Part shown: positions 1 to 37,549 of the stretch, piece after piece | How the letters are laid out: each line of letters starts with the position of its first letter | Numbering within the stretch: position 1 is the stretch's first letter | From: Macrostomum lignano | Lineage: Eukaryota | Direction of reading: 5' to 3' | Assembly (NCBI GenBank): GCA_002269645.1 | Contig: NIVC01000151.1 | Coordinates: 744,001 to 808,000 of the forward strand | DNA: 64,000 bases | Translations under genes and position numbers: made by a program | The notes under the pieces: generated by a model | What the model was told of the DNA's origin: nothing | The model's input: the letters and a program-made list of their open reading frames with translations, nothing else | The model's database searches: none

Positions 1-1073
1 GCTGTCACACGCTTGAGTGAACACGAACAATAGGCTCTGACCTCATAAATCTTGATGGCCTGTCAAAATGATGAGAAAAAAGCTACCGCCCGCATCCCTC
101 AGACCATCTGGCGCCCGTCTCAACACTGAGTGAGGCGCAGGTGGCTGTCAGACCAGCTTCGGAAGCGATGATTTACGACCCAAAAAGCTACGCCTATGTT
201 ATTATGACTACTAGTATGGCCAGACATTATATCTAGTATAGATTCTATGACAATTCGCAGAAAAAGGATAAAAATGCCCATCGCCCACTGTTAGTAGGCT
301 AGTAAGTTTCGAGCCCATGTGCTAGCGCGGGATTTGGGAAAAAGTGCGTCCTCATCATATGCCCCCCCTATTTGTGAGTTGATCGCAGATTAACTCAAAA
401 ACAAAGAAGAAAAATGAGCGCAGTTTTGTACAAAATCGCAGCTAGCACATCACAAAGTTAGTAAAAATAATAGTTACTCACAAATAGGTACTAAAATATT
501 AAACTGACACGCGTCCCAAGAAAGGAAATCCCAAAAGAGAAAGAATTTGGGTAAAGGGAAGGAATGAAGAAAGAGAGGGATCAAAAGAGAGGAGCTTAAA
601 AATAGATATCGCATTTGCAAATACAGTATTAGGTGTGATTTACACGCCAGGGGATATTACAAACAAACAAATTATTGTCGCGCGAGAAGGTATAATTCAA
701 AATGTGCGAGATGGGATAAACAGCGCATGTCCGACAAGACTAAGCTTCATTGTTCGCGTTCGAGTCAGTCTCGATTCTACCTGTTAAGCCTCTTGATGGC
801 TTAATTCCTTTGCCGCGCGGCCGACCCGTGCCAGGATGGGCGAGGAGCCTGGGAAATGCGTTGCACATCCTCCCCTCCCGCCTGTGGAATCCACGTGCCA
901 GGGGTTGCCGTGCTCATCTGGCAGCTGCTGGCGAATGGTGACCCTCAGAGGATTAAGGGACCCTCGAGTCATCTTTGCTGACTGGCTGAGACGCTGCTGG
1001 GGGAGGATGACCTCAACCGCCTCGAGTTCGCAGGGAGATAAAAGCGACTGACCACTCAGGTCATCCACAAATT

Positions 1074-1195
1074 ATGATTTTCGTCTTCGAATCCTGCGTC
1101 AGCCTTCTACTCGTCAGCCTGCACTTCGCCACTGCCACCTTTGCTGATTTCGCACCAGGCCAGGCCAGCCACTGCAGACCTCCGATCTTCAACTG
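1074..1195 (+). other. Possible signal-peptide-encoding first exon
   Basis: ATG, then MIFVFESCVSLLLVSLHFATATFADFAPGQASHCRPPIFN, then a TG|GTAAGT donor. No downstream exon was identified. Confidence 0.25.
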
Positions 1196-2382
1196 GTAAG
1201 TCTCATCTCAGCTCTGTGATACTCTACCGTACACGTTACTCAATCGAATAATCCCAGACCCATCCCACAGTTTCAGCAACCTTCAGGGTACACTCCCTCC
1301 TGCTCATTTGCCCATTCAGTGCTGTGTAGGATATATATACTTTAAGATGTATTATGAATAGAGTTTCAGATAAGAGGCAGAATGATTTTGAGCACTAGTG
1401 TTATATTTTAAAAGTTCTTTCAAAGGGGTTTGTCTTCAAAACTCCGATTCAATCGCATTCTCTTTCTAGTTTAATTCACACAATCCAATTTTAATTTGCA
1501 CTCAGTATTACTACATGTCAGTAGTATCGCACGGCCGCGAGTTAAGTTTTCGAATACAATTAAGAATTTCGTATTAATTCAGGCGGACCACTTGTACTTT
1601 ATGAAAGATTCTATTTGCCCAATCATTCCTAATATTCACCTATATTAATCATCTAATCTGACCTAGTACTAAATTTTGCTTACTATTAGTCTCCTTCTTC
1701 GCTTCGGCTCAGTGAGTTTAGTAACACGAGAAGTCCTACATTTCAATTTTAACTCAGCCCAAGAATCAATTCCAAGGCTGGCATTGCATGTTCTAATTTT
1801 GAAAACATTCATGTCAAATTAGGCAAAATAAACAAGCAATCACATACACGCACACGACACATAGTTTCCGCCACCATTTGATGAACTTTCTACGAAAAAG
1901 GAGAAAAAACGCAAAACACTACTGATATGGATACAAATAGCATGACACAACATTTATAAAATGAGCAAGCAAGAAATTAAGCATTTTGATTTTACGCACA
2001 TGTAAAATAATGACACAACATAGAAATAAATACGCGGGAATAAATAGTAAAACAACAGTGAATATAAACATGGAAATGCATTTTCAAAGCACCAGGGGGG
2101 TATTTACAGGGGGATCAGGGAGGGTATCAAAGACATTATGAGAAAGCAATTGTTCACGCAATAAGAGGATATATTTACAAGGGGCATAGCAGCACAAAAA
2201 GAAAAGAATAGGGGGTTGAAATTTTGCTTTGGCATGACAAAAATTTGGTTGAGAATTGAACATGAAAATAGAGGCACAGCTCGCCTACTAACCACTACTT
2301 AAGCCGAACGGTTTGAGAAAAAATAGTTTAAAATGCTTTTTCCCTAATTAAAATTTGTTCATAACCGTTCCACGTTCAATTC

Positions 2383-2907
2383 TCACGCTTCTTGGTTGGC
2401 GTCTTGGCTTCTCTGATACAACACCGCCACGCTCAGTTCCCAAATCTTCCTGTCGGCATCGAGGGCGGCAGGCATCTTGAGGACCGAGCGCGGGGGGTCC
2501 TCACCGCGGTGGAACACATCATTAAGTAGGTCGTAGACGATTCTCAAGCGGAGATACCCAGCCTCGCGCACCAGCGCATTGTATAGCTGGTTCCTCTCGA
2601 GCTGCTCGGGCGCCAGCAGCCAGAAACGCTCGTTGATCGCTTGCTGGGCAGCGGGCGGCAGAGTGTAGTGCAGTGGGCCCTCTCCATGCAGGCGGGTGCC
2701 CAGCTGTCGTAACACCCGCTCCTTCACGCTTTGCTCGAGTTCTTCATACCTCTCTTCACTCTCGCCTTCTAGGTGTCGCAGACCATTCAGAATGGCCGGC
2801 CGCTCACCCGTGCTTCCCAGCCCGCCTCGGCTGTGCGGACTAGTAGCGCCGGATGACAGCGGTGAGTGAGCTTCCTCTTTGATAGCATTAACCGAAAAGG
2901 CTTCCAT
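2383..2907 (-). CDS. Accessory ORF of unknown function (174 aa)
   Basis: ATG in aaaATGG context, GC-rich coding-like block inside AT-rich flanks, normal globular composition. No family recognised. Confidence 0.55.
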   Translation of the reverse strand: MEAFSVNAIKEEAHSPLSSGATSPHSRGGLGSTGERPAILNGLRHLEGESEERYEELEQSVKERVLRQLGTRLHGEGPLHYTLPPAAQQAINERFWLLAPEQLERNQLYNALVREAGYLRLRIVYDLLNDVFHRGEDPPRSVLKMPAALDADRKIWELSVAVLYQRSQDANQEA

Positions 2908-3377
2908 TTTCGCAGATGCACAAAGTTCTCTCTTACAGAAAAAGAATTATAGCTTAGCAGAATGCTTTAGCTCGCAGAAAATCGAATTGATTTACAGTTA
3001 AAGTGTTTCCCTTTATATCCGGAAAACATCAGATAACAGCAAACAAGGGGGGGGGTGACTCCACGCCGGAGTCTCCCTCCAATTGATACAAATCATTTGG
3101 GGCGCATAGTAGAAAAAACTCATTATGAGGGCCAATAAAACATTTGGGCTCAACAGACCGTCAACTTTTAGCGAGAGAGACAAAAAGCAAGGGTTACAAT
3201 GGGGGTGCATGGGGTGCACGAGGGAGGGAAGAGAGAAGAGGAGAAGACTGGGGGGGAGAGATGAGGAATCCCAACAGACTAACTGGGGATGCCAAAAATA
3301 GCCACGGCGGATTCTCCCAAGTGAATTATAGACTCTTCAGAATTATGTTAATTAGACTATGAGCTCAAAACGATTAA

Positions 3378-3989
3378 GAATTTCGAGCTAATTCCAATCC
3401 TGACAGCTCTAACTCTTTTTCTATCCTTGACCTGCATCTACTTCTCCGCCTATCACTCGCAGAGGGAGCGCTGATCCTACAACAGAGCCTTGTGCTCAAT
3501 AAGAAAATTCTGCACGGCACCTTCTCAGTACTCCCCACCGAGGTGGTGACCCGCGCTGACGGCCAGCGAGTGCTCTGTCCTCGCGCCGGGGTCCTCGCGC
3601 CACCCCTCATCGAGACCACGTTCACCTGCCGGGGTCAAGCTGAGCCAGCTCAAGGAGGCAGGGGTCGCGGTCGTGGCCGAGCTCGCGGCAACAACCATTC
3701 CAGCAGCTCATCGACCCGACTCGCGACTGTGGCAGCCTCCACTCCCTACGGAGCGTACAGTGCGGGCTCTCCAGGCGCCTCGCCGGTGGTGGCCCTGGAC
3801 TCCATCCAAGAGGAGCCGTCGGGCACGCCAGCCGCCACCCAGAACGCTGCACCCGCTGCCGCCGACCTTTCGGTACAGCTGCAGGAACACGCCACCATGC
3901 TGCAGACAGTGCAGCACAGCTGTCCGGATCACAACCGGACGGTCGAGCTTCTGCTGCAGGCTGCCTCACGGCTCAGCGAATTACACTAG
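3378..3989 (+). CDS. ATG-less antisense open frame (about 204 codons) within the retroelement, resembling the Gag N-terminus
   Basis: Open from 3378 (after TAA) to TAG at 3989, GC-rich and coding-like. It has GGRGRGRGRARGNN and PAAADLSVQL, versus Gag GGRGRRGRGNRN and PQAADMAAQL. Confidence 0.4.
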   Translation, partial: EFRANSNPDSSNSFSILDLHLLLRLSLAEGALILQQSLVLNKKILHGTFSVLPTEVVTRADGQRVLCPRAGVLAPPLIETTFTCRGQAEPAQGGRGRGRGRARGNNHSSSSSTRLATVAASTPYGAYSAGSPGASPVVALDSIQEEPSGTPAATQNAAPAAADLSVQLQEHATMLQTVQHSCPDHNRTVELLLQAASRLSELH

Positions 3990-4290
3990 CTTCCAGACTC
4001 ATACGCCTACCCTTTGTGTCCATTGCTGCAGCATTACTACTATCCATAAATTACTTCTCTAAACAAACTATTACCGTATTAATTTCTTTGTGCCAATATT
4101 TCTGTTCTTAAATAAACTGCTTTTCATAACTTATCATTTCATTCATAATTTTTCTTAAATTCCTAACTATTATTCCTGATTAATTTGACCTAATCACTCT
4201 AGAAGTCCAACCTGTTATAATACTTTAGCCAAAGAGGGGTGGGCAAGGGGAAACCGAGTTGGGCCCCAAACCTCAAAGTTCGCAAGGAAG

Positions 4291-4713
4291 TCAACAGAAT
4301 GGGAGCATTTGCCCCAATACTAGTAAATTTCTAGTGTGATAGTCCAAGACAGCAGGCGCGGCTGCCAGAAAAGAGTTGCCCAGCAGAGGCCTCGTGGCGG
4401 GGTCACTGGCGACTAAAAACATTACTGGCATGGTTTCAGCCCCTAGGGTGACAATCAGCTTGGACTGACCCACAATCTCTAATCTATGCCCGCTATAGGA
4501 ATAGATAGAGACTGTAGGGGCTTCCAACCTGTCCATGTCATCATTAGTGGCCGCCACAAAGTCTCTGAAGGGCAAGATGGAGACTGCCGATCCAGAATCA
4601 ATGAGAATTCGGAGTGGCAATCTCTCCACTTGAACTTTCACATACACGTCAGCTCGGGAGCTTTTAAATGGCATAGCCTTCCTGGGAACAATGAAGTCGG
4701 GTATGCAATTCAC
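4291..4713 (-). CDS. Retropepsin-like aspartic protease, +1 frame relative to gag, terminating without RT
   Basis: Catalytic motif ILIDSGSAVSIL, flap-like YSYSGHRLEIVG and C-terminal PLLGNSFL. Stop codon at 4291. The frame has no ATG at its start and is open across the last about 25 gag codons. Confidence 0.85.
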   Translation of the reverse strand: MNCIPDFIVPRKAMPFKSSRADVYVKVQVERLPLRILIDSGSAVSILPFRDFVAATNDDMDRLEAPTVSIYSYSGHRLEIVGQSKLIVTLGAETMPVMFLVASDPATRPLLGNSFLAAAPAVLDYHTRNLLVLGQMLPFC

Positions 4714-4792
4714 TTTCCTTTTGCCCCATTTGCTAAATTTGCCCTTGAAAGTCCAGAAGAGGGGTGAGTGTGGGCGCCACCCATCCCTACTC

Positions 4793-6142
4793 TCAGTTTT
4801 CCGACCCGGGCGGGAGATAGAAAGAGGGCCGCTGTTTCTGTGCTCCCGGCGCCGGGGTTGGCGGGGGCCTCAAATTCTCTTCTCCTGTACTGCTCTCTCC
4901 CTGGGTAGGAACATGCAGGGGAGGCGGGCGCGCGCGTGCACTGTTGCGCAACTGCGGGGGCCGGTAAACCTCAGTTCTTTCAGTCTGCTTGGCCGAGTCA
5001 CCGTAAATCGCGTTCTGCCTCAATAGTGCGGGCTTCGCTGACAGATTTTGAGACGAGGGGAGCGGGGACTTGCCCTCAGGCGGTTGGCTAGCTCGCTCAG
5101 TATCTTCTACCACGGTGAGGTCTCCCTCCCAATGATCTGAGTGGCTTGTCATGGCCTGATCAATCCTCTCCGCAACCTGGCTCATAGCGCCGTAAATCTT
5201 GCCGACGGTTTCATCTAGGCTGTTTTGACGCTGCTGTAAATCTGCCAGTGCCTCTTCCACTTCCCTTCCTTCCTCCGACTCTAGCATGCGGACCCACCTG
5301 CGTTGATATTCTCTGTCGCTGGGGCGATTCTGATCTCTGTTTCTATCGTCCCTACGCTGATCATACCTGGGCTGGTCTCGCGCTAAGCGCCGGGAAATCT
5401 CATCTGCCTCTTGGAGATTCTGCTGAGCTGCCAGCACTTCATCAATGCTGCGAAACTGTTGCCCTAGCAGCGACTTGCGCACATCTGGGGCGATGTCAGC
5501 TGTTTCCAAGTAGGCAAAGATCACCTCCGACTCTAACTGTCTAGGACTCATGTCGGGGTAAGCAGAAGCTATCACACTACGCACCATGGCCGAATAGGCG
5601 TGGTGATTCTGGCCTGCCTTCTGTTTTAGATTCCGGACCTTGTTCCTCTTCGCTAGTTCTGAACTGGCCTCTCCTACCTGGCGACCTAACCTTTCTATAA
5701 ATTCCTCAAAGTCAAGGCCGGGATGGAGGGCAATAGCAAGACTCTGCAGATCTGGGGGGAGGAGCGAGATTACTGTGCTCTTCTTCTGCTCTCTGTCCCT
5801 AATCTCTTCAGACCTGAGTTTGTATTTGACTCTGTCAACCCACTGGGGGAAGCAGGATTCTGCTGGGTTGAATTTCTCAACGCTAATCTTGACACTCTGT
5901 GTCTCTCTGCCCAATCCGATAGCTGCAAGGGCTTGCGCTAATTGGGCTGCCATGTCGGCGGCTTGGGGTTGAGGTGGGGCTCTCTGCGGGGATGACCCGC
6001 ACTCTGATTGCTCGGGGGAGCCTGAGCCCTGGGACGAAAAATTGCAGGCGGCTGCAGCGGCGGCTGCTGATCCGTTCCTATTCCCTCTACCTCTTCTGCC
6101 TCTACCTCCTGACTTACTGGTACTGGAATTACATGTTTCCAT
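4793..6142 (-). CDS. gag: Ty3/gypsy-type Gag-like protein
   Basis: Long ORF with the first ATG at 6142; the track start at 6178 is TTG. The capsid-like core is KFNPAESCFPQWVDRVKYKL...LLPP...LRNLKQKAGQNHHAYSAMVRSVIASAYP, followed by an R/D/Q-rich region and a coiled coil. It lies downstream of the PBS and upstream of the protease. Confidence 0.8.
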   Translation of the reverse strand: METCNSSTSKSGGRGRRGRGNRNGSAAAAAAACNFSSQGSGSPEQSECGSSPQRAPPQPQAADMAAQLAQALAAIGLGRETQSVKISVEKFNPAESCFPQWVDRVKYKLRSEEIRDREQKKSTVISLLPPDLQSLAIALHPGLDFEEFIERLGRQVGEASSELAKRNKVRNLKQKAGQNHHAYSAMVRSVIASAYPDMSPRQLESEVIFAYLETADIAPDVRKSLLGQQFRSIDEVLAAQQNLQEADEISRRLARDQPRYDQRRDDRNRDQNRPSDREYQRRWVRMLESEEGREVEEALADLQQRQNSLDETVGKIYGAMSQVAERIDQAMTSHSDHWEGDLTVVEDTERASQPPEGKSPLPSSQNLSAKPALLRQNAIYGDSAKQTERTEVYRPPQLRNSARARPPPLHVPTQGESSTGEENLRPPPTPAPGAQKQRPSFYLPPGSEN

Positions 6143-6810
6143 AGTTCGGGCACAACACCAGTTGCCGGGACAGAACAAAAGAATGTGAATCTGAACCGGG
6201 GCGGAAAAAATGAATGCAATTGGCTATTAGCCGAATTTGGGTGTCTGCTTCAAAGCAAGACAATGGCAATGAATCGAATCGAATGGGGGGAAGGGGGGAG
6301 ATTGTGCAAAAAGCCTAACTGGGGTAGGGTTTTGACACAAGTGAGCAATGGGGGGTTGAGCGCCGCGAGTTGGGGAGCTCAAAGCAAAAGCAATAAATTA
6401 CAAGGAAAAATAAAAAACACGCAAATAAGCAAAAGATACGCGATCTATATACAAAAGCGTACAATACGAGCGCGGGGCTTGCGATAATGATCGCAAACAC
6501 AGCACAAAAATGAGAAAATACGCAAAAACCAACAAAGCGGAAACGTCACTTATTCCACTCACACCGCAGTCACACTTGACTCAGAACTTTCACACCCAAA
6601 ATCCTTCTGTCTCTGTCTTGAATCCGATCTCGGATTTTCTCGAATCGCTGCTTTTAAACTCACTGATTCTCAACTGGGCTGAGGCCACAGCTTTCCGCAG
6701 GCTACTACAGTCTCAGTTTCTCTTTCTCTCTGAGCGGCTCTTTTTGCTTCCGAATAATTTCAATGGGCTAGTAAATCATGGAGGGTCTCTTCAGCTCTTA
6801 TTAGCCTAAA

Positions 6811-7367
6811 TTGCAGGCGCCAATATGTGGGCACCTCATGTGTATTAGAGCTCTCCTGCGTGGTATCGCCACTAGGAAACCGTCCGGGTGCTGCTACGGC
6901 TAGACAGATTCACAATCCCCATCAAGGCTGATCTTTTAGCGGAACTTGGACGTCTGACCCAGCGCGCCCAGTGGCCCCTCTGTGTAGCTTTTGTCAGCAT
7001 TGACCGGTGAGGGCGGATTACACCCAATGAACGATACTCGCAAACAGACAGGTAATACACAAGGAGTTAAGCAGGTCCGTAGTGTAGTGTTCACTCCGCA
7101 ACAAAACCTTTTGGCACGGTCCCTAAGAATTTTGATCATAGAAAAAGCTACGGGCAGCAGGAAAGTTTGTCAAATATTATGACCCTACGTTATCGGGTCG
7201 GGTATTTTTATAGCGGCGAACCACAGAAGACATCTGTGTCTTGAGTCAGTAGAGTCTGTCCAGACAAAGCTGCGCTCCCCTCCTCTTACTATCATAAAAA
7301 TGAATAGCCACGGCGTTTTCTGCTCTCTGCAGAATCGTTAACCAGAGCGGTAGCTGGAATTCGCACA
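6811..7367 (-). mobile_element. Putative second LTR (6826-7367) with TGGCGCC(TG) tRNA-Lys-like PBS (6811-6822)
   Basis: The minus strand has TGTGCG...CCCACA ends, then TAT, then TGGCGCCTGCAA, about 670 nt upstream of the gag ATG. The PBS match is short and no second copy was seen. Confidence 0.5.
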
Positions 7368-8638
7368 TACTACCATGGCACCGTGTGGGTAATTCTCTCC
7401 GCTTTCCTTACTGTATTTACATTAGATACCCCTCCAATTCTAAGAAAGAACCGAAAGGGCAAAAGCAAACTTCCAAACCCTAAATTCCGCAACCAGGAAA
7501 AATTACTTGTGCACTGGCAAACTGTGCTACTTAAAGTAACACCTACACACTTTCCAGACTCCTAGGCTAAGCAGATGGTAAATGTACGAACTTAAAGTAA
7601 CTCCAGACCTCACAATTCTGTACCCAAACCCAAAGTAGCGTGGCTGTTCCCGCGTTCCGGTAGCCATCAACCCCAGACATATTTTTCAGGACATGGATGT
7701 CTGACCCAGCGCATCCAGAGGCCCAACGGCACAGCACTTGCCATTGTTAGCCGGAATACCGAGAATTGCGGTGGGAATTTGAGCTCTCCGTTGCCACTTA
7801 AAGCGATTTATACCACCAAAGCCCGAATAGCGGACAACAATTCGTGAGAAGCACTCAGATAGAACACCCCGATTTAAATCGAAATGATACTATGATCACA
7901 CAGTTCGCTAATCCGACTGTCCCGTACTAATCTGCTCCAGAGTATAACCTTTGAACCCAAAACCCGTGAGGCCCTGCGTATGAAACCAAGGCTTCGCACA
8001 TCCAAAAAGCTGCCTGATTCTAAATTTTGCAAACAAGTCAAAAACTACGAGCGCTGTCAGCATTCTATAATGAACGTTTTGGCCGAGGAAGCATTATCAT
8101 TCGGATAATGGCCTCTTGTCTACACGACAAAAATTAATAGCTTAATTTCGAGTGATCAGTTCGAAACTTTTCTGTTTAGCAAAAGTACAAGAACTATCCT
8201 AAGTCTCTATTTTCCGCATAATTAGCTGGCTGAAATCAAAACTGGAGAACTAAGCAGAGAGCCTAGATAACTTATCAAGCTGAGAGAGTTATATGTGCGG
8301 GGTTGATTTTTTTTACATGCTCTGGCTTTTTGAATTTTTTATAATTTTTTTGGTTGATTTTTTGGAATAGGCATGCATTTAATGGTAAGCAATTCATACT
8401 AGTAATTTTTTTGGTTCCAGTAGCATAATTTTTTTGTGCATTTTTGGACTCTCATAATTCAGACTTGAAAAGCTATCGCAGCTGACTACTTACAGTAATC
8501 TAAAAGAAACCTAAATTCCCAATTTTGAAATCTAAACGGCGCAACTCGATATTATTATTCTGTCACAATTTGCCATTTACCAGCCATCCACTACCGGTGA
8601 GCACTTTACCACTTCCTACCGGCTAGTGTTTACCAAAC

Positions 8639-8656
8639 ATCCCACCGCTGCCACCA
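8639..8656 (-). promoter_or_regulatory. Primer-binding site complementary to the tRNA-Leu(AAG/TAG) 3' end
   Basis: The minus strand reads CA-aa-TGGTGGCAGCGGTGGGAT. The plus strand atcccaccgctgccacca equals the 3' 18 nt (including CCA) of metazoan tRNA-Leu as I recall it. Confidence 0.9.
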
Positions 8657-8658
8657 TT

Positions 8659-9157
8659 TGATGGGTTTCGACCTTGCAGGCCCCTTGTGAGGAAGCCTTC
8701 GGGCCTCAGGCCTCAGAAACAAATCAATTAGAGTCCTGGCCCCCCACTCCTGTCAGATGGTCAGCCCCATGGTAGCTTGATCGTGTGGCGAGCAGTCTAG
8801 GTCCTATAGCTTCGAGATTGACAGCAAAAAGACACTAGTTGGCAGGTAAGTGCAAAGCCCCTTCTAGTCGGAAGCCCGATTTCGAGAGTCCCGGTGTGGT
8901 GAGCCAGGACGCACGGGCTGGTGGCAGCGAGTTAGCTTAGTCTGCGGATTAGCTAATTTCTACCTTCAAAATTCTCCCTGCTTGTCTCTCGCTGTCCCTC
9001 TCTTAGCTATAGGACCTAGACTGCTCGCCACACGATCAAGCTACCATGGGGCTGACCATCTGACAGGAGTGGGGGGCCAGGACTCTAATTGATTTGTTTC
9101 TGAGGCCTGAGGCCCGAAGGCTTCCTCACAAGGGGCCTGAAAGGTCGAAACCCATCA
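8659..9157 (-). mobile_element. 5' LTR (TG...CA, 499 bp) with 153-bp terminal inverted repeats
   Basis: 8659-8811 (tgatgggtttcgaccttgcagg...ctatagct) is the reverse complement of 9005-9157 (agctatagg...aaggtcgaaacccatca) with one mismatch seen. On the minus strand it ends CA, followed by a 2-nt spacer and a PBS. No partner LTR was seen in the window. Confidence 0.8.
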
Positions 9158-9399
9158 TTATTATGGCACAACAGAGCCAGCAACTAAAGCGGGCACAAAT
9201 GATATTTCGCGCAAGCTTCAACTGCAGTCTATGACAAAACGCCTTCACTTCTATAGATTGACTTCATTTCGCGCCAGCTGTTACGGTCATGGTAAAAATT
9301 CCTACGAAGGACCCCTACTACTCGTAATTCTATATAGTAGCCTGTATTCCTCGATTATTTCTTCACGACAGAATACGCAAGAACGAAATAGGGGGTTTG

Positions 9400-9830
9400 A
9401 CTGGCGATGAGTTGGATTTTGTCGTTCATCTTGTATACGCCGAGAGGATACCGTCCCAATCGGCCAATAGACAGGCCTTACTGAGAACCAGGAACGCCTC
9501 ATCGACGAGGAACTCCGTGATCCAACCAACGTTGACGAAATTTCTCTGTTGCGTGAGTTGACCTCTGAAGAACAAGATCTTCTGTGACAGGTGGAGGAGG
9601 AAAGTCTACCGCCAAGCAGACGGAACAACATTATAAAGGCTCAAAACTTTTCTGATGGAGGAGGGAATGCCAACTGACATTGATAGCATCCGATGCTGGT
9701 TCAAACTCTATTTCGAACTTCATGATAGCCATTAGCAATCCAGTTTGCGAAGCACCCAATTCGTTCGGCAACTGCAAGTTTGAAAACTGTACCTTCAACG
9801 TCACCCCAACAAGTGAGTGTCGGATCGAGC
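9400..9830 (+). pseudogene. Degenerate coding relic ending in an FGNCKFENCTFNV motif (Crypton/DUF3504-like C-terminus?)
   Basis: Acidic helical peptide ENQERLIDEELRDPTNVDEISLLRELTSEEQDLL interrupted by stops. The terminal FxNCxFxNCTFN motif is one I associate with Crypton-derived proteins. Confidence 0.25.
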
Positions 9831-11109
9831 AGACAACTTTTAGCCTGTTTGAGACAATGATGCGTCAAATACTTCATTGTATACGTAAATACGACTCGAG
9901 CTATATTTATTAGCTCATGTTTTGTTTTAATCTGTTATTTTGGATATTGATTCTGCTTGTTTATTCACCTCTTGTTTTCAAAGAGAGGCATAAATATAAA
10001 GAATATATGCCATTTGGTTTGGCCATAGACATCGGCCGCGGGCAAATATCGTTGGTTTCACCCTCATTTCGACACGCCCTGGCCTGCCATAATTAATCTA
10101 TGCAATTGGGTTAGCATGCGCATTTACAATGTTATATTCAGCGGACTTGTAGAATTTAAAGCAAAGCTTACACGAGGCCTGCATTACTACACGCATATAA
10201 ATTGTGACTGCATTGTGATTGGTTGATTGTAAAAAGTAAAATCACAATGTCGAATGCCCACTCAGTTTTTTCCTGATGAATGTCAGAGCACATACAGTAC
10301 GTACAGTCCGCACTGGAGGCATTTCCATGTCAATTGTATTTGGTTCGAGTTCAGGGTTTGATTGAGGAACCAGTAAAGTATTAGCGTATACACATGTTAT
10401 CAGTAAAATCTTTAAGAGGAAATTTAGGAGGTTTACTCTTAATATACTGAAATATACTCGTGTACTCATAGCTATAATCAAACCATGCCAGTTCTACGGT
10501 AGCAATGTAAATTGTTTCAAAATATAACAAACGAAAAAATAGACATTGAAGCATACACAAGAAGTTAAATAAGTTTTAGAGTAAACCCTTGTAGTGTGTT
10601 TTTGATATAAAGTAAACTGCAATCAAAACAGGTAAATAACTAAGCGAAAATCCAGCGAAGTTCAATTGAAAATATCAAAATACTACAAATATTCCATGAA
10701 AAACTGTAATATTTGGTTTTTGAGGTACGATACCTAACGTTTTAAAGTCACGAATACAGTTTTATGAAATACATTAAATTGTTTAGGCTTATTAGAAGTA
10801 ATTGTTCGTCGTTTTTTAGTGTTTATTTTTATTAAATTTGCCACTTCTGTATTCATTTTAACTTTAAGTATATCAATACTTAGCTGGACTGTAAGAAACG
10901 CAGCATCATTTGTCTACTTTATAAAAAGCTTTATCTGAAAAGGATAAAATTTCCTCCTAAGCGCAAAAGTGGGATCAATTCAAAATAAAGTATTCAAAAA
11001 ACGTTTCATTTTGGTATCTGTTGTTGTAGTTGCATTGTCATTTCTTATTACCAACAATGCAGTATTAGAATTTAAAATGTATTCAAGTTACAAGGCACAG
11101 TCTCTTGCA

Positions 11110-14100
11110 ATGAAAAATCTTAAAACCCTTCTTATCTCAGCAAATGTAGGATCATTGTTTGATGATGTAAGTGCTATTGCTGATTGAGGCAAGTAAATTT
11201 TAGTATGATCATCATGGTTGATTGATTTATTTAATATAGGTTCACCTTGTTTTTAATAGAAATTCATTAAAACATTAAAACATTAAACAACAATCTAGTT
11301 AATAACTGATGATGTCATTGTCATTAATTTAGGTTTGTTATTTGTGTTTTTTAGTTCATTTTTAAACTAATAGAGTATTTTTGTGTTTATAACTAAACTA
11401 TTGTATAGATATAATTTTCATGGATTTTTACTAGCAGCTAATTTGCATCAGACTTTTAACTCCTAACCTTAATCAGAAATAAATAAGTTTATGTAATTAT
11501 TTATATATTTTGCTGCATATAATTTCACACAACCAAGTGCATATTTATTTTGTCTTGTTCATATTACATCCTTATAAACATCTGGATTTGCTATAAATCT
11601 TTACAACCATACCTTCTCCATGGCAAAACCTTCAAATTCTATAAAATATTTAAATCAATCTTCTAGCAGATGTAAAAAATTATAACAATTGTTTTAAATT
11701 CTTGAACTCTACTGCCTGTCCTCCCTATCTCTAGAATCACATTTCAAATTTTAGCCCGAGAATCTCTTCAAGAAGTGGCTGAATCAGTTCTATCAGGTGC
11801 GTTGTTTAAAACAAATAAAAATTATGCTGCTTGTTTAAAACTTTAAGCTATACTCGTGAAGCGAATCGCACCATCGCCCACCTTTGAGACGAGAACCGCG
11901 GGCCTGGTGTGAATTGCGTCACTTGCGGCTCTGAGATCTGAGAAAAGTTGCCCACTGGTTTCCGGGGTGGAAACTTTAACATTTTGCTGAGGGTATTTGA
12001 TATCTGGATGTCAAGAGTGCACAAACTGCCAATTATGCAGGTCGTCAGGGACAAAGACCCCGACTTCATCGCTCTGCACTGCCAGGAGGTCGGCGGTAAA
12101 AACTTTGCCCAGTCAATGCCGAACGTGAAAAAGTGGATTCAGTAAGATTACTGTAATGATTGATGATCGGTAGGCGAGCAGACTGATTGATTGATGATCA
12201 ATGGGCGAGCAGATTGATTGATTGATTGATGATCGATGGGCGAGCAGATTGACTGATTGATTGATGATCGATGGGCGAGCAGATTGACTGATTGATTGAT
12301 GATCGATGGGCGAGCAGATTGATTGATTGATTGATGATCGATGAGAAGGAGATTGATTGATTGATGATCGGTGGGCGAGCAGACTGATTGATTGATGATC
12401 GGTGGGCGAGCAGATTGATTGATTGATTGATGATCGATGGGCGAGCAGACTGATTGATTGATGATCGATAGGCGAGCAGATTGATTGATTGATGATCGAT
12501 GGGAAGGAGATTGATTGATTTATTGCTTTAGTAAGGAGTTAGTTGATTTTGATAGATATTGGCATTATCAATGACTCACCTGTAATCAATTCTGCAGAGA
12601 TCTCCTGGCGTCGCCAGACCTAAAAAGTTATGACAGAGTTCGCATATTCCTAGACGAAGACTTCAAAACTGCTGAAACCTTCACGGTTCGTGCTGGCTCT
12701 GAGTCTGTTGTGGACCACAGAAATGAGAATCACCCATTCCATAGACAGAACAGAGCCATGACCCTCATAGAGCCACGATCCTCACGCACAGACTCACAAA
12801 GTCTACAGAGCTATAAGCTTATAACCGACATCACCCATAGATATATCGCCAACCGCACCCATATAGCCATGACTCACTGATCTCACAGAGCCATGACTCA
12901 CTGATCTCACAGAGCCATGACTCACTGATCCCACAGAGCCATGACTCACTGATCCCACAGAGCCATGACTCACTGATCCCACAGAGCCATGACTCACTGA
13001 TCCCACAGAGCCATGACTCACTGATCCCATCCCTCCACAGGCCCTGGGCTCGCTCTACTTCGTACACTCGCGAGTTGCTGACATCCGCATCTGGGACTTC
13101 GCCAGCTCCGACTTTGTCAACGTTAAAGACACCAAGGTGAGTCTGGGAGCTCTCGTGACGGACATTCAGGTTTATTTTGAACCCAACTGAGAACCCATGG
13201 TATTGATAATTATTGAAAATCTCACCCTGACCCACACTGAGAATCTCACCCTGACCCACACTGAGAATCTCACCCTGACCCACACTGAGAATCTCACCCT
13301 GACCCACACTGAGAATCTCACCCTGACCCACACTGAGAATCTCACCCTGACCCACACTGAGAATCTCACCCTGACCCACACTGAGAATCTCACCCTGACC
13401 CACACTGAGAATCTCACCCTGACCCACACTGAGAATCTCACCCTGACCCACACTGAGAATCTCACCCTGACCCACACTGAGAATCTCACCCTGACCCACA
13501 CTGAGAATCTCACCCTGACCCACACTGAGAATCTCACCCTGACCCACACTGAGAATCTCACCCTGACCCACACTGAGAATCTCACCCTGACCCACACTGA
13601 GAATCTCACCCTGACCCACATTGAGAAACTCACCCTGACCCACACTGAGAATCTCACCCTGACCCTGACCCACACTGAGAATCTCACCCTGACCCACACT
13701 GAGAATCTCACCCTGACCCACATTGAGAATCTCACCGTGACCCACACTGAGAATCTCACCCTGACCCACATTGAGAATCTCACCGTGACCCACACTGAGA
13801 ATCTCACCCTGACCCACACTGAGAATCTCCTCCTGACCCACACTGAGAATCTCACCCTGACCCACACTGAGAATCTCACCCTGACCCACACTGAGAATCT
13901 CACCCTGACCCACACTGAGAATCTCACCCTGACCCACACTGAGAATCTCACACTGACCCACACTGAGAATCTCACCCTGACCCACACTGAGAATCTCACC
14001 CTGACCCACACTGAGAATCTCACCCTGACCCACACTGAGAATCTCACCCTGACCCACACTGAGAATCTGACCCTGACCCACACACTGAGAATCTCACCCT

Positions 14101-17100
14101 GACCCACACTGAGAATCTCACCCTGACCCACACTGAGAATCTCACCCTGACCCACATTGAGATTCTCACCCTGACCCAAATATAGAATCTCCTCCTGACC
14201 CACACTGAGGATCTCACCCTGACCCACACTGAGGATCTTACCCTGACCCACACTGAAAATCTGACCCGGATTGTCTGACATGGTGGCTCTTTTATATCCG
14301 CGCCATCTGATACTGCAGAGTCTGCTCCGAGATCTGTGGCTTCTTTGCACTCCGAAATCTGCTTCCACCCGGATCTGTTTGACTTGCCTTTGGCTATCGA
14401 CCCGCTCCAGACGGACTGACGCCTCTCTTCAAAGCCAGCCCGATGTCAATAAATATTTGAGCAGCCATCGTCTCTGCTCTGCTCCGAACTCTGAGTTCTC
14501 CCGTGCACTTTTGATCCCCCACTGAGTCTGCGAGGCCAAACCCCAGCCATTAATCTCTAAGCCGCACAGAGCCCCCTCAAACCCGTCTGCCAAAAACGGC
14601 TGCCAGATTTTTGCCTTCTGGCGGCTCCAGCTGATGCGCTGGGATCGCCTCGTCCGGATTGCAGCACGCCGAGGCTGCGGCTTTTATGATATTGTGCTGC
14701 ATTGATTAATTAGAAAGAGTCAGGAGCGAGGCCTAGCGACTGGGGATCTGGGAGGCTAGCCCAGCAACTGAGGATCTGGGAGGCTGGCCCAGCAACTGAG
14801 AATCTGGGAGGCTGGCCCAGTAACTGAGGATCTGGGAGGCTGGCCCAGCAACTGAGGATCTGGGAGGCTGGCCCAGCAACTGAGGATCTGGGAGGCTGGC
14901 CCAGCAACTGAGGATCTGGGAGGCTGGCCCAGCAACTGAGGATCTGGGAGGCTGGCCCAGCAACTGAGGATCTTGGGGACTGGCCCAGCAAATGAGGATC
15001 TGGGGGACTGGCCCAGCAACTGGGGATCTGGGAGGCTGGCCCAGCAACTGAGGATTTGAGAGGCTGGCCCAGCAACTGAGGGTCTTTGAGTTGGCCCAGC
15101 AACTGAGAAGCTGGGAGGCTGGCCCAGCAACTGAGGGTCTTTGGGTTGGCCCAGCAGCTGAGGGTCTTTGGGTTGGCTCAGCAACTGAGGAGCTGGGAGG
15201 CTGGCCCAGCTACTGAGGATCTGGGAGGCTAACCCAGCAACTGAGGATCTGAGACGGTTGCCCAGCAACTGAGGATCTTGGGGACTGGCCCAGCAAATGA
15301 GGATCTGGGGGACTGGCCCAGCAACTGAGGATCTGGGGGACTGGCCCAGCAAATGAGGATCTGGGGGACTGGCCCAGCAACTGAGGATTTGAGAGAGCGG
15401 CGCAGCAACTGAGGATCTGAGGGACGGGCCCAGCAACTGAGGATCTGAGAGGGCGGCCCAGCAACTGAGGATCTGGGGGACTCGCCCAGCAACTGAGGAT
15501 TTGAGAGAGCGGCCCAGCAACTGAGTATTTGAATCTTTACCTTCGTATTGCTCTTTTTCTCTCATGCGATTATTAAGTTCTCTCGTTGAAATCTTGTCAT
15601 TTAACGCACGCCGACGTTGCTTTTAGGTCTACGACGGGTCCATCGAATCGGTGGGCGAAAAGGACAAGCAGAAATTTCCATTGGAACTTTTTCCCAATGT
15701 GAGTTGTCTGCCATGTGTGTTGCCATGTGTGTTGTCTGCCATGTGTGTTGTCTGCCATGTGTGTTGCCATGTGTGTTGTCTGCCATGTGTGTTGTCTGCC
15801 ATGTGTGTTGTCTTCCATGTGTGTTGTTGTCATGTGAGTTGTCTGCCATGTGTGTTGTTGGCATTGGTGTTTGCATTTGTCACTTGGTGCGAGCCCGCTG
15901 GGCTCATGTACACCTGGTGTTAGCCCACCTGGGCTCATGTACACCTGGTGTTAGCCCACCTGGGCTCATGTACACCTGGTGCTAGCCCATCTGGGCTCAT
16001 GTACACCTGGTGTTAGCCCACCTGGGCTCGTGTACACCTGGTGCTAGCCCACCTGGGCTCATGTACACCTGGTGCTAGCCCACCTGGGCTCATGTACACC
16101 TGGTGCTAGCCTACCTCAGCCCCTTATGTACCCGGTGCCGGGTGCTACCCCAGTTTAATATCAATCGGCCTTGCAGCTCCCGCCCTCCGTTCGGCCCGCA
16201 GCGCACCTGGTCTCGCAAAGGCTACATGCGCACCCGCTGGCAGGTGGGGCGGCTCAGCTTTGACTTAGTCAATGTGCACCTGTTTCACGACGACTCAAAT
16301 CTGGAGAGCATGTCTCGGGTAAGTTTGGCAGATAGGCAGATATCGCAGAAGCATTGTTCTATTTATAGGGCAGTCATCCAATAGGCAGATATAATTTTAT
16401 ATGATTTTATAGTTATCCCATAGGATGTGGCAGTTACTCTGCAGGATGTGGATGTCACAGACGGCAGTTATCCAGTAGTAATAAATGTCAGTTATCCAGT
16501 GGCCACAGGCGGCAGTTATCCAGTAGCCACAGGCAGCAGTTATCCAGTGGCCACAGGCGGCAGTTATCCAGTAGCCACAGGCGGCAGTTATCCAGTAGTC
16601 ACAGACGGCAGTTATCCAATAGTAATAAATGTCAGTTATCCAGTAGTCACAGACGGCAGATATCCAGTAGCCACAGACGGCAGTTATCCAGTAGCCACAG
16701 GCGGCAGTTATCCAGTAGTCACAGACGGCAGTTATCCAGTAGTCACAGACGGCAAATATCCAGTAGTCACAGGCGGCAGATATCCAATCATAGCAGCCGC
16801 TCTGTCCCGCAGACGCCGTCCATCTACGCGGACTTCAGACGCGGCGCTTTCAACTGGACGCTCGACCAGCTGCGCAACGGGTCGGCGAGCATCGAACTCC
16901 CGACCTTTCTGTTCGGCGACTTCAACTTCCGCCTGGACATGGTCGGCTATCTCAGGGTTGGGCCTCCGAGTTTCGCCAATGTTTGCCTGTGAAATACCGT
17001 GGACAGCTCGGGCTCAGCTCCCCAATTCCCCTGTGGAATTCCCCTCGGCTCAGCTCCCCAATTCCCCTGTGGAATTCCCCCCGGCTCAGCTCCCCAATTC

Positions 17101-19491
17101 CCCTGTGGAATTCCCCTCGGCTCAGCTCCCCAATTCCCCTGTGGAATTCCCCCCGGCTCAGCTCCCCAATTCCCCTGTGGAATTCCCCCCGGCTCAAGCT
17201 TCCGTTTTTTCTTGCACAGGCGGTCGCGGACGGCGCCGAGCGGCGGGAGCAGTCGGACAAGAGCGGCCGGCCGAGCCGCGTCGACTTCCTGGCCGCCGGT
17301 AACGGCGAGAACGGCGGCTGCCTGCTGTCGGTGGGCAAGAAGCTGTTCGAGCGGCGCTCGGACAACGGCGCTAATGAGTTCTATGAGAACAAGAACTGCT
17401 GGGTGAGACTGTGCTGAGTGCATGATGTGCGAATGGTGTGGGACTGATGTATGAATTATGTGTTAATGATGTGCGACTGATGTGATAATTATGTGACTGA
17501 TGTGATAATGATAAATCAGATGATGAGATGATGAATGATGATAATATGAATTATGTGATAACGATGTGTGACTAATGTGATAATGATGTGTGACTGATGT
17601 GATAATGATGTGCGAATGGTTGATAATGATGTGCGAATGGTGTGTGGCTGAAGCACTTACATCACTGCATGGCCGCAGCTCCCCGCATACCTCACTGCCG
17701 CCCCCATCGCAGCTTAACGAACTCGACTTCGAGCTGAAATCGTTCGACCAGCACCTGTTTGAGTTCCCCGTGACCTTCCCGCCGACCTACCCGTTCAGCG
17801 AGGACTGCCAGGCGCCGGGCGCGGCCACCGACTACATGGCCACCCGCCTGCCCGGCTGGTGCGACCGCGTGCTCTGCAGCCACTCCGCCCGGCGCGCCCT
17901 GCTGTGCCCGCCAGACCAGCCGACTCAGTACGCCGTCCTCGGCCTGGACGACTGCCTGGGCGACCACAAGCCCGTGTTCCTCTCCACCCTGCTGTGCACC
18001 GCGGCAGATGCCGAAGGTAAGGATCAGCAAAGTTGGAGTTCCGATGGTCCACCAGGCTGTTTGTGTACACCTGTAGCTGTGTTGTCGGTAGCTGGTGCAC
18101 CCTGTAGCTGGTGCACCTGTAGCTGGCACACCTGTAGCTGGTACACCTGTAGCTTGTACACCTGTAGCTGGTGCACCTGTAGCTGGTACACCTTTACATG
18201 TAGCTGGTACACCTTTACATGTAGCTGGTACACCTGTAGCTGCATGGTACACCTGTAGCTGGTACATGTATTACTTGAAGACTGAGTACTTTAAAGAATT
18301 TCTAGAATCGAACCAGTATAGCCCGAGTCTGGAGGTCAGGGAGTAATTAATGAACCAGTGGCAAGCACTAGACTGGTGTTTTGGTGCATTTATCGTACAT
18401 ATGTACTTTTCTCAGCATTGAGTGTGTTGCCAGTTGCTACCCAAAGCCTTAGTCCGCATTGCCTAAACAGATGACTAAACATTGATTGATGACATTCTCT
18501 TTCAGAAGAAAGCCACAGTGAGCTGTGACCGAGTAGGTTTTTGCTTTTTCTGCCTCCCAATTTACTCCCGCCCTAATCTGTACTTTGCTTCTCTCCTCTT
18601 CTGTTTTCCTCAATTGTTTTCTTAGAGTTTTTAACATTTAGTTTACTTGCTGTAGCATCTCAAGGGTCTTCTATTATTGATTGGCAGCTAATTGTCTGAG
18701 CTGGCCTGCTGGAGTGCCGGCAACTTGAGGCTCGCCTTGAGTTCGCACACCATTAAGTCGCAAACAGCATCATGCTGTACTTTTATTGGATTTTGACTGT
18801 CTTGAATTTTATGCTGACTTTATTCAACTCTGTCTGTCTCTTCTCCCTCCCCCGCCTGTCTCCTTCCCTCAGTGCCTGTCTTCTTCCCTCACCGCCTGTC
18901 TCCTTCCCTCACCGCCTGTCTCCCCTCACCGCCTGTCTCCTTCCCTCACCGCCTGTCTCCTTCCCTCACCGCCTGTCTCCTTCCCTCACCGCCTGTCTCC
19001 TTCCCTCACCGCCTGTCTCCTTCCCTCACCGCCTGTCTCCTCCTTCCCTCAGTGCCTGTCTCCTTCCCTCACCGCCTATCTCCTCCCCTCCCCTGCCTGT
19101 CTCTTCCCCTCACTGCCTGTCTCTCCCCCCTCCTTCGCCTGTCTCCTCTCCCGCTCCTCATGTCCCTCTTCCTCAAAGAGTATTCTTAATTATGTTATCT
19201 TAATTCCCATGCGGATGTGACTGCTAGCCTTCAGTGAGATTCTTAGTGGCATGCAGTGTTCTGCTAGATGCCAATTTCTCAGACAAACCGCTTGCCTTCC
19301 TCCCCCCCCCAACAGCCGATGCCGCCGGCTGCATCCTGGACCCCGCCGACATGCCGTCCCCGCCGCTACTCAGCCGGCTGCTCGACCAGCCGGGCGTACA
19401 GGTGAAGCTGACGGACCGCAACGGGGCGGTGTACGCCCACGTGCGCCGGGACGGCACCACAATCTGCGTGTTCAGGGAGACTGCGGTGTGA
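11110..19491 (+). CDS. INPP5A: Type I inositol 1,4,5-trisphosphate 5-phosphatase, 11 exons, about 459 aa
   Basis: Exons 11110-11166, 11755-11796, 12041-12141, 12598-12685, 13041-13136, 15627-15698, 16202-16318, 16813-16956, 17220-17402, 17713-18016, 19316-19491. All GT-AG and phase-consistent. Motifs LLISANVGSLFDD, FIALHCQEVGGK, WSRKGYMRTRW, NVHLFHDDSNL, FGDFNFRLD, PPTYPFSED, PGWCDRVL, GDHKPVFL. Confidence 0.95.
12160..12525. repeat. GATT-rich minisatellite (gatcgatgggcgagcagattgattgattgat), INPP5A intron 3
   Basis: About 11 variable-length tandem copies. Confidence 0.9.
12760..13030. repeat. 24-bp minisatellite (gactcactgatcccacagagccat) abutting the exon 5 acceptor
   Basis: Tandem copies, each containing cccacag|ag, similar to the real acceptor ccacag|gc. 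Confidence 0.9.
13218..14262. repeat. 24-bp minisatellite (ctcaccctgacccacactgagaat), about 43 copies
   Basis: Highly homogeneous tandem array in INPP5A intron 5. Confidence 0.95.
14745..15525. repeat. 28-bp minisatellite (cccagcaactgaggatctgggaggctgg)
   Basis: Tandem array in INPP5A intron 5. Confidence 0.95.
15694..15855. repeat. 16/12-bp minisatellite (gtgtgttgtctgccat) starting at the exon 6 donor
   Basis: The unit mirrors the junction caat|gtgagttgtctg. Confidence 0.85.
15893..16110. repeat. 31-bp minisatellite (cacctgggctcatgtacacctggtgctagcc)
   Basis: About 7 copies, intron 6. Confidence 0.9.
16455..16785. repeat. 24-bp minisatellite (cagttatccagtagtcacagacgg)
   Basis: About 14 copies, intron 7. 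Confidence 0.9.
17008..17195. repeat. 36-bp minisatellite (ggctcagctccccaattcccctgtggaattccccc...)
   Basis: About 5 copies, intron 8. Confidence 0.9.
18090..18265. repeat. 15-bp minisatellite (cacctgtagctggta)
   Basis: Tandem copies, intron 10. Confidence 0.85.
18845..19135. repeat. 20-bp pyrimidine-rich minisatellite (ttccctcaccgcctgtctcc)
   Basis: Tandem copies, intron 10. Confidence 0.9.
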
Positions 19492-19512
19492 CGGCACATC
19501 TGATCTCAATCG

Positions 19513-28071: not shown

Positions 28072-28127
28072 CTAACCCTAACCCTAGCCTAACCCTAACC
28101 CTAACCCTAACCCTAACCTAACCCTAA
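28072..28127 (-). repeat. Interstitial telomeric repeat (TTAGGG)n, about 9 units, inside a degenerate about 480-bp duplicated unit (about 27900-28850)
   Basis: ctaaccctaaccctagcctaaccctaacc...; a decayed equivalent lies at about 28501-28546. Confidence 0.85.
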
Positions 28128-33824: not shown

Positions 33825-34461
33825 CCTGTACTATAACTTTCACCGACACATTTTCAGATAGATCTTCCGACACTTTTTACGACACTTAAAATGTTGCAAA
33901 AAGTGTCGTAACAGTTGACCTTCGCTGACACATATTTTCCGACACTTAAATTAATACTGCAAAAAAGTGTCTGAAAAAGTGTCGTATGGTTAAAATTCTG
34001 CCAACACATCTTCCAACACTTGAAATGTCACTTCTTAAAGCTAGGTGATGTACGTACATGTAGCTCCTACTATTCATGTAATGTATGTTTGTTAAGTACA
34101 CACTACGCAGCAGCCTGCAGTACATGACAGATTCATTTAAATTAATCTTCAGTCAGATAAATATAGTAGATCAAACCATTAAATGTAAGTTTGTGATTTG
34201 AGAAACATTTCCCTGTTTCCCTGTTTTAAAGATCCCTTCATGGAACAAGATACAAGAACTGTTTCTTCAACTGCTTCAAAATTTTGTTACAACACTTTTT
34301 CCGACATTTTAAGTGTCGTAAAGTGTCAGAAGATCTGTCTGAAGATGTGTCGGTGAAAGTTAACTGGTACGACATTTTTTCCAACACTTTTTCCAACATT
34401 TTAAGTGTCGAAAAAGTGTCGGAAGATCTGTCTGAAGATGTGTCGGCGAAAGTTATACAGG
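33825..34461. mobile_element. Foldback/MITE with about 70-bp imperfect TIRs and subterminal repeats
   Basis: cctgtactataactttcaccgacacattttcagatagatcttccgacac... is the reverse complement of ...gtgtcggaagatctgtctgaagatgtgtcggcgaaagttatacagg. Confidence 0.7.
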
Positions 34462-36120: not shown

Positions 36121-36240
36121 TATCAGGGCGCGCATCTGCCTATACTGTCTTAATGTCGTGGAGTATAGTGGTGCAGATCCGGGCTTTTCGTCAAGTCATC
36201 GAAGAGGCGCGGATACGCTAGCAGATTCTGATTGTTATCT
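36121..36240 (+). mobile_element. Short RTE non-LTR fragment (inverted relative to 38434-38560)
   Basis: Shares gcatctgcct...gtcgtggagta...ggcttttcg...catcgaagaggcgcggatacgctagcagat...ttatctt with the minus strand of the RTE relic. Confidence 0.55.
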
Positions 36241-37183
36241 TATCAGGATTGGCTTATTCCCGATTCTAGAACAGTGAGAATCAGTTTGAAACTTTTAATT
36301 TTTCTTGTTTCTTTTTCCAAGCTCAAAACTAACTGTTTCTTGAACGAAAATTTATCGTTTCACTGCTGTGTTCTATAGTTTCTAATATGGAAGCTATGTT
36401 ACCGATTCTTTTGAGCTATATTTCATTCTTCGAGGCTTGTCTTGTCTCTAAATAATTAAATAAGGAATACAGTAGCTACCCGAAATGGCGAAAATTCTTC
36501 ATAATTATTTATCAAATAATTCATATTTGTGAATTGAAAATACGCACACTGTATACAGCTGTGCTAAGTTGATGGTTGTCATTTTCCCACACAGGTACTG
36601 TTGTAGAACCATGCAATTATTCTGGTTTATATAGTAAATTTAGAGAAAAGCCTCGTCATTAAGTGAAAGATAAAGTCAGAACATGATCATCATTCACCCA
36701 TCATAGCTCCACTCTATGTATTTAAGGTGCGTGTGCAAAATACACTCAGCTGTGCATAAATGGCCATCTGGCTTACTGGCACAGTGCGTACGAATTCATG
36801 AGCAAATCATGCGTTTGTTGTTGTCAAATGGTTTTGCATGCCTAATGTACATACATCTAATACAACTAAGCAATTGGGGACATCAGCAGTTCTCAGGTGT
36901 GCTGCTTCTTAAAGTCTATTGAAAAAACATTGAAAAAAACAAATATCTGTTTAAAGAAGCCATTAGTTAATTTCGTTTCATTGCCATAGACGTATTTGTG
37001 GCATCAACGCCAGGGTTTTTTACACAAACAAAACTGGACTGTGGAGACAGGTTCGATGGGCTGAGTCTCAAGCGCAGCAGTTTAAGTGAGAGCTGCAGCA
37101 TTTGAGCTAATTTCCGAATCTGCTAGATACGAGAGCACCACGTTTTTCACTGGCATAGGACCACCCGAAACGCCGCTACAGCA

Positions 37184-37549
37184 ATGAGCTCGTATTTCGC
37201 ACTTCTGGCAGTCGGCCTGATGAGCGCCGCTGCCCTGCTGACCAAGGCCGACGCCATCAGTACTGGCGAGATGCTCTTCGAACTAGCCAATGACGGCCAC
37301 CACCATGACGACCATCACCACCACCATGACGGTCATCACCACCACCATGAAGGCCATCGCCACCACTATGATGGTTATCACCACCACGACGACCATCACC
37401 ACCAACATGACGGTCATCACCATCACCATGACGGTCATCTCCATCACCATGACGACCATCACCACCACCATGTCGGTCATCACCATCATCATGACGGTCA
37501 TCACCATCATCATGACGGTCATCACCACCATGACGACCAGCATCACTAA
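37184..37549 (+). CDS. Secreted His/Asp-rich repeat protein, paralog 1 (121 aa)
   Basis: Signal peptide MSSYFALLAVGLMSAAALLTKADA, then ISTGEML, then about 12 HDG/HDD-H4 7-aa repeats. Clean ATG and stop; AATAAA downstream at about 37858. Confidence 0.85.
   Translation: MSSYFALLAVGLMSAAALLTKADAISTGEMLFELANDGHHHDDHHHHHDGHHHHHEGHRHHYDGYHHHDDHHHQHDGHHHHHDGHLHHHDDHHHHHVGHHHHHDGHHHHHDGHHHHDDQHH

Follow-up and report, generated by a model that had tools for sequence, protein, structure and literature searches.

A gag-protease LTR retrotransposon of Macrostomum lignano whose 5' LTR carries an inverted copy of its own U5 end

The locus and the coding region of the element

The window analysed here is a 64,000-nt stretch of contig NIVC01000151.1 of Macrostomum lignano. 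A host inositol-polyphosphate 5-phosphatase gene maps to about 11960-19500 on the plus strand; one of its exons, at 17713-18018, shares 99% identity with M. lignano BOX15_Mlig000302g1, and most of its introns contain their own minisatellite. Nearer to the start of the window, on the minus strand, is a non-autonomous gag-protease Ty3/gypsy-like LTR retrotransposon, the 5' LTR of which (8659-9157, 499 bp) is a palindrome with the ends TGATG and CATCA. It is followed on the same strand by a primer-binding site (PBS) and by gag and protease ORFs, an order that bears out the original prediction that the unit is an LTR.

The PBS, which had been predicted to be perfect, spans 18 nt (8639-8656, minus strand) and is separated from the LTR end by a 2-nt spacer, AA. 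It matches the complement of a tRNA-Leu(AAG) 3' fragment at 18/18 positions (the fragment as given in the available part of PMC12452697), the reference fragment being human and not from M. lignano. Between the PBS and gag lies a 2.4-kb leader (6224-8638, minus strand) without known domain, for which a Pfam search of six frames gave no relevant match. Two hairpins in the leader, at 6944-6977 and 7691-7724 on the minus strand, are 85% identical, have a common 12-nt loop and differ in their stems by changes that preserve pairing; they could possibly represent a packaging or dimerisation signal.

The gag ORF (4793-6223, minus strand) comprises 476 codons from stop to stop, with the first ATG at 6142, and encodes a basic N-terminal tract and a predicted two-lobed capsid fold. 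A search of 1.84 billion representatives gave two relatives (E 2e-5 and 6e-5; 22% identity). Both contain Retrotrans_gag and zf-CCHC domains; a CCHC zinc knuckle was looked for in the Gag of the element and was not found. A structural model built from the three-sequence alignment had a pLDDT of 70, and the top 23 of the 50 structural matches listed were retroviral or retrotransposon capsids, the best with a Z of 9.8 and an rmsd of 4.7 over 146 aligned positions. For helical proteins, Z values of this size are modest, and the weight of the capsid assignment is therefore on the uniform top of the list. A word-index protein search gave no match among 8000 candidates, a search of PDB sequences with the Gag alignment gave none below E 0.06, and Foldseek with the Gag model gave none at E 0.001 or better, although capsids headed its results.

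The aspartic-protease ORF (4291-4869, minus strand; 192 codons) overlaps the end of gag in another frame and has its stop directly after the domain. Its match to the Pfam family gag-asp_proteas is weak (E 9e-4, under the curated cut-off), and the word-index search found no match among 1314 longer candidates. No Pfam match to an RT, RNase H, integrase or recombinase was detected in 18 frames covering 1-4290, 6200-8640 and 9158-11900, and the element, in which no RT, RNase H or integrase was found, is not assignable to a clade.

Two further ORFs of no recognised family were found inside the element, beyond the protease. An antisense ORF of 203 codons (3378-3989, plus strand) had Pfam matches of low complexity only and no usable Atlas match for 3462-3989, and a sense ORF of 187 codons (2383-2946, minus strand) had no match in Pfam or the Atlas and gave a model with a pLDDT of 44. 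Both are intact, they are divergent, and each is preceded by an acceptor-like pyrimidine tract. None of the four ORFs has a second copy in the 64-kb window, and an exact look-up of three ORF translations returned none of them (0/3).

Extent and symmetry of the palindrome

The original prediction described a 499-bp TG...CA unit with 153-bp arms, one mismatch and a 193-bp core, and comparison of the unit with its own reverse complement confirmed this description. There is one mismatch in the first 153 positions, at offset 18 (8676/9140). The PBS-side arm (8659-8811, minus strand), in the U5 position, ends in CATCA, an end motif that is found again at 1879, while the outer arm (9005-9157, minus strand), which occupies the place of U3, is an inverted copy of it with 152/153 positions complementary. 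Ungapped extension of the arms into the 193-bp core gave 167 bp at 97%. By far, 8659-9157 is the most perfect inverted repeat of the 64-kb window. The intact ORFs and the single arm mismatch suggest that the insertion is young.

Outside the unit the pairing ends abruptly: 0/7 of the nearest flanking positions pair, and 2/12 overall. Since the arms stop exactly at TG/CA, the ends correspond to an att site and not to a random inversion; a local inversion or assembly fold-back, considered in advance as a refuting case, therefore fits poorly. A second refuting case set in advance, a MITE with its own target-site duplication, also fits poorly, because no duplication of 3-10 bp is present at the unit; over the lengths tested (2-10), the left and right flanks agree at 2 bp (TT) only.

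The premise that ordinary LTRs carry only short terminal repeats holds for the LTRs described in the available text of PMC3601003, where they are about 7-15 bp: the terminal inverted repeats of the LTR models measure about 7 bp, and the specificity of integrase resides within 8-15 bp. The same source describes an AATAAA signal and an AT-rich promoter stretch as conserved in animal Metaviridae LTRs. A search of 8659-9157 in both directions found no AATAAA, ATTAAA, TATAAA or TATATA. Within the 64-kb window there is no second copy of the palindromic unit and no 3' LTR bearing the same arm, which the complementarity of U5 and U3 that was proposed to form a panhandle requires. Each arm also contains a small stem with a UUCG loop, at 8695-8704 on the plus strand and 9112-9121 on the minus strand.

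Inner stem, core and predicted folding

When gaps are allowed, the arms are prolonged inward by an imperfect stem of ~30 bp, to about sense position 184. Its 5' side (8974-9004, minus strand) pairs with its 3' side (8812-8850, minus strand); over sense 156-175 the pairing includes 18/20 positions, with G.U at two of these. The anchored score of this stem was reached by 3 of 1500 core shuffles. The boundary of identity is graded, with 99% over 153 bp and then about 70%, and in the minus-strand RNA the inner stem contains 2x2 purine loops and G.U pairs, its mismatches being G.U or purine-purine. The predicted fold of 8620-9157 has an energy of -416 kcal/mol (z = -32.5), with none of 100 shuffles equally stable, and the structure of the core was matched in stability by 3/200 and 1/200 shuffles. 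As RNA, the inner stem gave -32.7 kcal/mol unflipped versus -28.5 flipped; as DNA, the two were equal.

A stretch of 11 nt in the core (8919-8929, minus strand) is complementary to the beginning of the PBS, nt 1-11; it is a candidate self-primer or PBS mask and, on the plus strand, reads as a second PBS-like site. A PBS complement of at least 11 nt occurred in 5 of 20000 shuffles of the LTR. The duplex of this 11-mer has an energy of -24.9 kcal/mol versus -39.0 for the full 18-mer, and the 11-mer was predicted to pair with the PBS in 3/4 trial transcript starts, namely for RNA beginning at sense 190-225. It closes a short hairpin (8919-8964, minus strand) that, in the manner of a tRNA acceptor minihelix, terminates with ACCA unpaired and that may resemble the tRNA-Leu acceptor stem. 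A consensus-type 5' splice site is located in the core at 8843-8851 on the plus strand, facing the host gene, the start of which is about 3 kb downstream.

A second junction and a candidate 3' end

A second LTR-end/PBS-like junction, CATCA-AA-TGGTGGC, was found at 1868-1886 (minus strand), with an exact 14-mer in common with 8650-8663 that comprises the LTR end, the spacer and the start of the PBS. None of 2000 shuffles gave this shared 14-mer; with 2 mismatches allowed, 8/100 shuffles gave two matches. The likeness to the Leu PBS breaks off after 7 nt, and the junction is preceded by ~480 bp of T-rich DNA without homology to the palindromic LTR.

Downstream in the direction of the element, the only PPT-like G-tract with a TGATG start is at 353-368 (minus strand), where a G7 tract and 4 nt precede TGATG, forming a candidate PPT and 3' LTR start that leaves the window at its beginning. 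The chance of such a site was 0.007 under a narrow pattern but rose to 0.29 when a broad purine pattern was used; both patterns were picked post hoc. The site is not matched by a pattern of at least 9 purines before TGATG. The sequence after the candidate start is unrelated to the arm. If 353-368 is the 3' LTR of the element, its 5' LTR has lost U3 and bears an inverted U5 instead; if the site is due to chance or nesting, the partner LTR is outside the window. The start may be a chance occurrence, or may belong with the 1868-1886 junction to a second, nested element. A purine run followed by TG at 866-879 was also considered as a PPT and was rejected, being without a partner LTR.

When 1-11900 was divided into nine parts and these were aligned pairwise, in either orientation, the result was three short AT-rich matches only, none of which touches the LTR. 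Three mutually unrelated ends of the TGATG/CATCA type are located on one strand within 9 kb, at the palindrome, at 1868-1886 and, 1.5 kb further, at 353-368, a cluster that may represent nesting or a captured relic.

Origin of the palindrome

The likelihoods given here to the competing explanations are judgements and not computed values. Our best explanation, held tentatively and at somewhat less than an even chance, is that the palindrome arose in reverse transcription through fold-back of the minus strong-stop DNA and is limited to the 5' end of this insertion, the enzymes for mobilising the element being supplied in trans. Since the PBS is 2 nt from the CA end, tRNA-primed minus strong-stop DNA would copy U5 and R. 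The ~30-bp inner extension would represent an imperfect stem formed by the ends of R, on which the strong-stop DNA would fold back with its 3' end, allowing RT to copy U5, the 2-nt spacer and the PBS off its own strand. The self-copied product would end like plus strong-stop DNA, so that it could pair through the PBS with the full-length minus strand and complete the cDNA. The left end would then consist of an inverted U5, a flipped R and U5, with the correct CA integrase end outermost, and the right end would be an ordinary 3' LTR with U3 beginning at 357. Under this mechanism the palindrome would be a trait of one insertion or of a minority of copies and not of both LTRs, and the RNA would be without a U5-U3 panhandle.

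Several observations favour fold-back. The arms end exactly at TG/CA, the outer 153 bp are near-identical, as in a fresh copy, and the arms are coaxially continued by an older imperfect stem, a possible snap-back primer. The absence of AATAAA, ATTAAA, TATAAA and TATATA from the unit points the same way, and a 353-368 start unrelated to the arm is expected where U3 is missing from the 5' end only. In folding predictions, a DNA 3' end reaching 4-7 nt into the arm paired back on the inner stem with a probability of about 0.5-0.97 on either strand. Self-priming of this kind is described for HIV-1 RT, with which minus strong-stop DNA primes itself on a terminal hairpin and nucleocapsid suppresses the reaction, according to the available text of PMC6088434; the Gag of the element is without a zinc knuckle, while both of its relatives have one, which also argues for fold-back.

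Other observations disfavour it. Without the help of the perfect arm, the predicted snap-back was weak, with a probability of about 0.2 for the minus-window strand and of at most 0.05 for the plus-window strand. None of the three plus-strand 3' ends tried folded back, and folding demonstrated no strand preference. The available text of PMC6088434 describes the self-primed HIV-1 products as dead ends in first strand transfer that are absent from endogenous reactions, and here the self-primed strong-stop product would have to be integrated. As RNA, the inner stem has a slight advantage in stability when unflipped, and it is in the unflipped sense only that the 11-nt anti-PBS suits a known self-priming geometry. 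The 353-368 site is possibly due to chance (0.29) or to a nested element, and a window taken at random is likelier to meet a family trait than a one-off event.

The close rival is such a family trait, in which both LTRs of the element family would be 499-bp palindromes; we consider this a possible but doubtful reading. The U3 and U5 arms would pair in the genomic RNA, drawing the PBS and PPT together, and template switching onto nascent cDNA would re-equalise the arms in each cycle, while the inner 30 bp, held by pairing alone, would drift. The integrase would meet the same 153 bp at both cDNA ends, and the core may flip between copies. The graded boundary (99%, then about 70%) suggests an old palindrome that is actively homogenised, and a family trait accounts for it as well as or better than fold-back does. 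A core more structured than its shuffles, inner mismatches that are G.U or purine-purine in the sense RNA, and an 11-nt anti-PBS paired with the PBS in 3/4 trial starts are all consistent with it. However, the unit has no second copy in the 64 kb, and the arm has no relation to the sequence that begins at the candidate 3' LTR, which leaves 353-368 to chance or nesting. No such LTR was found in the literature searched, a body of text that includes few subscription papers and no part of Repbase, and five motifs of the locus are absent from the supplement of a survey of M. lignano LTR elements, which gives sequence for 6/137 families, as partial alignment rows. It seems rather unlikely that the palindrome represents a heritable 499-bp family in which the U3-side end is remade in each cycle by fold-back copying of U5, with flipping of the core and a tRNA-free second priming from the 11 nt. 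The balance tips slightly towards a palindrome confined to the copy studied here, which was the third refuting case set in advance.

Back-to-back fusion, in which the element would have inserted in opposed orientation into the LTR of a related copy, is improbable. The older LTR would then have supplied its U5 end as the outer arm, and the LTR of the inserted element would begin inside the core, at about 8968. Such an event would also produce exact CA ends, and opposed LTRs are a proposed origin of the Ginger1 TIRs in the available text of PMC2836005. A TG start that is partly like the clade end motif is present at sense position 190, slightly inward of the stem boundary; this start is not TGATG, however, whereas the three other ends in the window are TGATG/CATCA, and the abrupt change from 99% to about 70% identity is not expected of two independent copies.

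It is very improbable that the unit is a MITE or a Ginger-like non-autonomous DNA transposon that abuts the PBS by chance. Its 153-bp TIR is inside the 40-270 bp range of Ginger1 as described in the available text of PMC2836005, and further fold-back elements are present in the window. Nevertheless, the flanks agree at 2 bp (TT) only and not at 3-10 bp, the right flank is not the remainder of an LTR, the termini are TGATG and not the TGTNR of Ginger, and the sequence of end, 2-nt spacer and PBS start recurs exactly at the 1868-1886 junction.

An assembly or read fold-back artefact, which the near-identity of the arms and the description of the M. lignano assembly as redundant (available text of PMC12801592) would allow, is most improbable of all, since a chimeric read would continue beyond the CA end into the PBS and should not produce an inner stem that has diverged, and the window is without N and without plasmid or phage matches.

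Comparison with known systems

The feature is real in this element, and it is unusual: the outer 153 bp of the LTR repeat its U5 end in inverted orientation. DIRS1 is a retroelement with inverted terminal repeats, a tyrosine recombinase and an RT/RNase H, and no protease; the present element differs in having a protease and no match to a recombinase or RT. TR-GAG elements are non-autonomous LTR elements with gag and protease only, a content that the present element shares, but they have ordinary direct LTRs and not a palindromic 5' LTR. In the self-priming of Tf1/sushi elements, the transcript starts at the self-primer. The self-primer criterion given for these elements in the available text of PMC6317226 is an LTR stretch of at least 10 nt with complementarity to sequence 0-5 nt downstream of the 5' LTR; the stretch complementary to the PBS here is 11 nt (8919-8929). 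Tf1/sushi elements are described there as being without a tRNA-complementary PBS, whereas the present element has a full 18-nt tRNA-Leu site.

The Ty3/gypsy elements described for M. lignano (Mag, CsRN1, Gmr1/Osvaldo and Mdg3; available text of PMC12801592) resemble the present element in the host, the TG...CA repeat, the tRNA PBS and a capsid-fold Gag followed by an aspartic protease. The present element differs from them in that no RT, RNase H or integrase was found, and its terminal inverted repeat is 153 bp, compared with a few bp in the Mlig-id38 LTR rows of that source. Since the survey starts from RT, an element such as this one would be missed, and in its available main text palindromes and PBS are unmentioned (PMC12801592).

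Self-primed minus strong-stop DNA of HIV-1, as described in the available text of PMC6088434, has in common with the proposed fold-back a hairpin at the end of R and a cDNA 3' end that copies its own U5 side. The HIV-1 product is an in vitro dead end, whereas the flatworm product would have been completed and integrated. Ginger1 and Ginger2 resemble the palindrome in their 40-270-bp TIRs and LTR-like ends, the TIRs of Ginger1 being of suggested origin from opposed LTRs; the available text of PMC2836005 further gives Ginger an integrase-like transposase between the TIRs, TGTNR ends and 4-bp duplications. In contrast, the flatworm repeats are both part of a single LTR that adjoins a PBS, and the unit is not flanked by a duplication. 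The LTRs of Sireviruses are also palindromic, hairpin-capable and tied to siRNA hotspots, but in these plant Copia elements the palindromes are many, of 17 bp and in the upstream half of the LTR, and do not form one long terminal repeat (available text of PMC4728375). Inner repeats of 9-10 bp are described for bivalve TRIMs (available text of PMC6934838).

If the palindrome is a one-off, it would be a genomic fossil of a side reaction of reverse transcription that has been considered a dead end. It would mean that self-primed strong-stop DNA can be completed and integrated, giving long TIRs from an LTR in one step, and would offer a concrete route for the relation of TIR elements such as Ginger1 to LTR elements. 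A family trait would instead represent an LTR design with consequences for strand transfer and for silencing by hairpin small RNAs, for which it would provide a built-in long hairpin. With 153-bp TIRs and integrase ends, each solo LTR of such a family would resemble a MITE and would form a living link from LTR elements to Ginger-type TIRs. Repeat annotation would be affected, since solo copies would be filed as MITEs.

Flanking sequence and other repeats in the window

The right flank of the unit, about 9158-9760 (plus strand), looks like decayed coding sequence cut by the insertion; in pairwise alignment it is not the remainder of an LTR, and none of three frames of 9158-9759 had a Pfam match. 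An Rfam search of 1-12000 gave one chance-level snoRNA match and no ribozyme or tRNA, ARAGORN predicted no genes, and comparison with plasmids, phages and bacterial and archaeal genomes gave no match.

Three other inverted-repeat pairs were found, at 33832-34457, 36155-38518 and 56422-57487, with 41-117 bp at 80-90% identity; they are probably MITE-like elements. A short array of telomere-like hexamers is located at 28072-28127.
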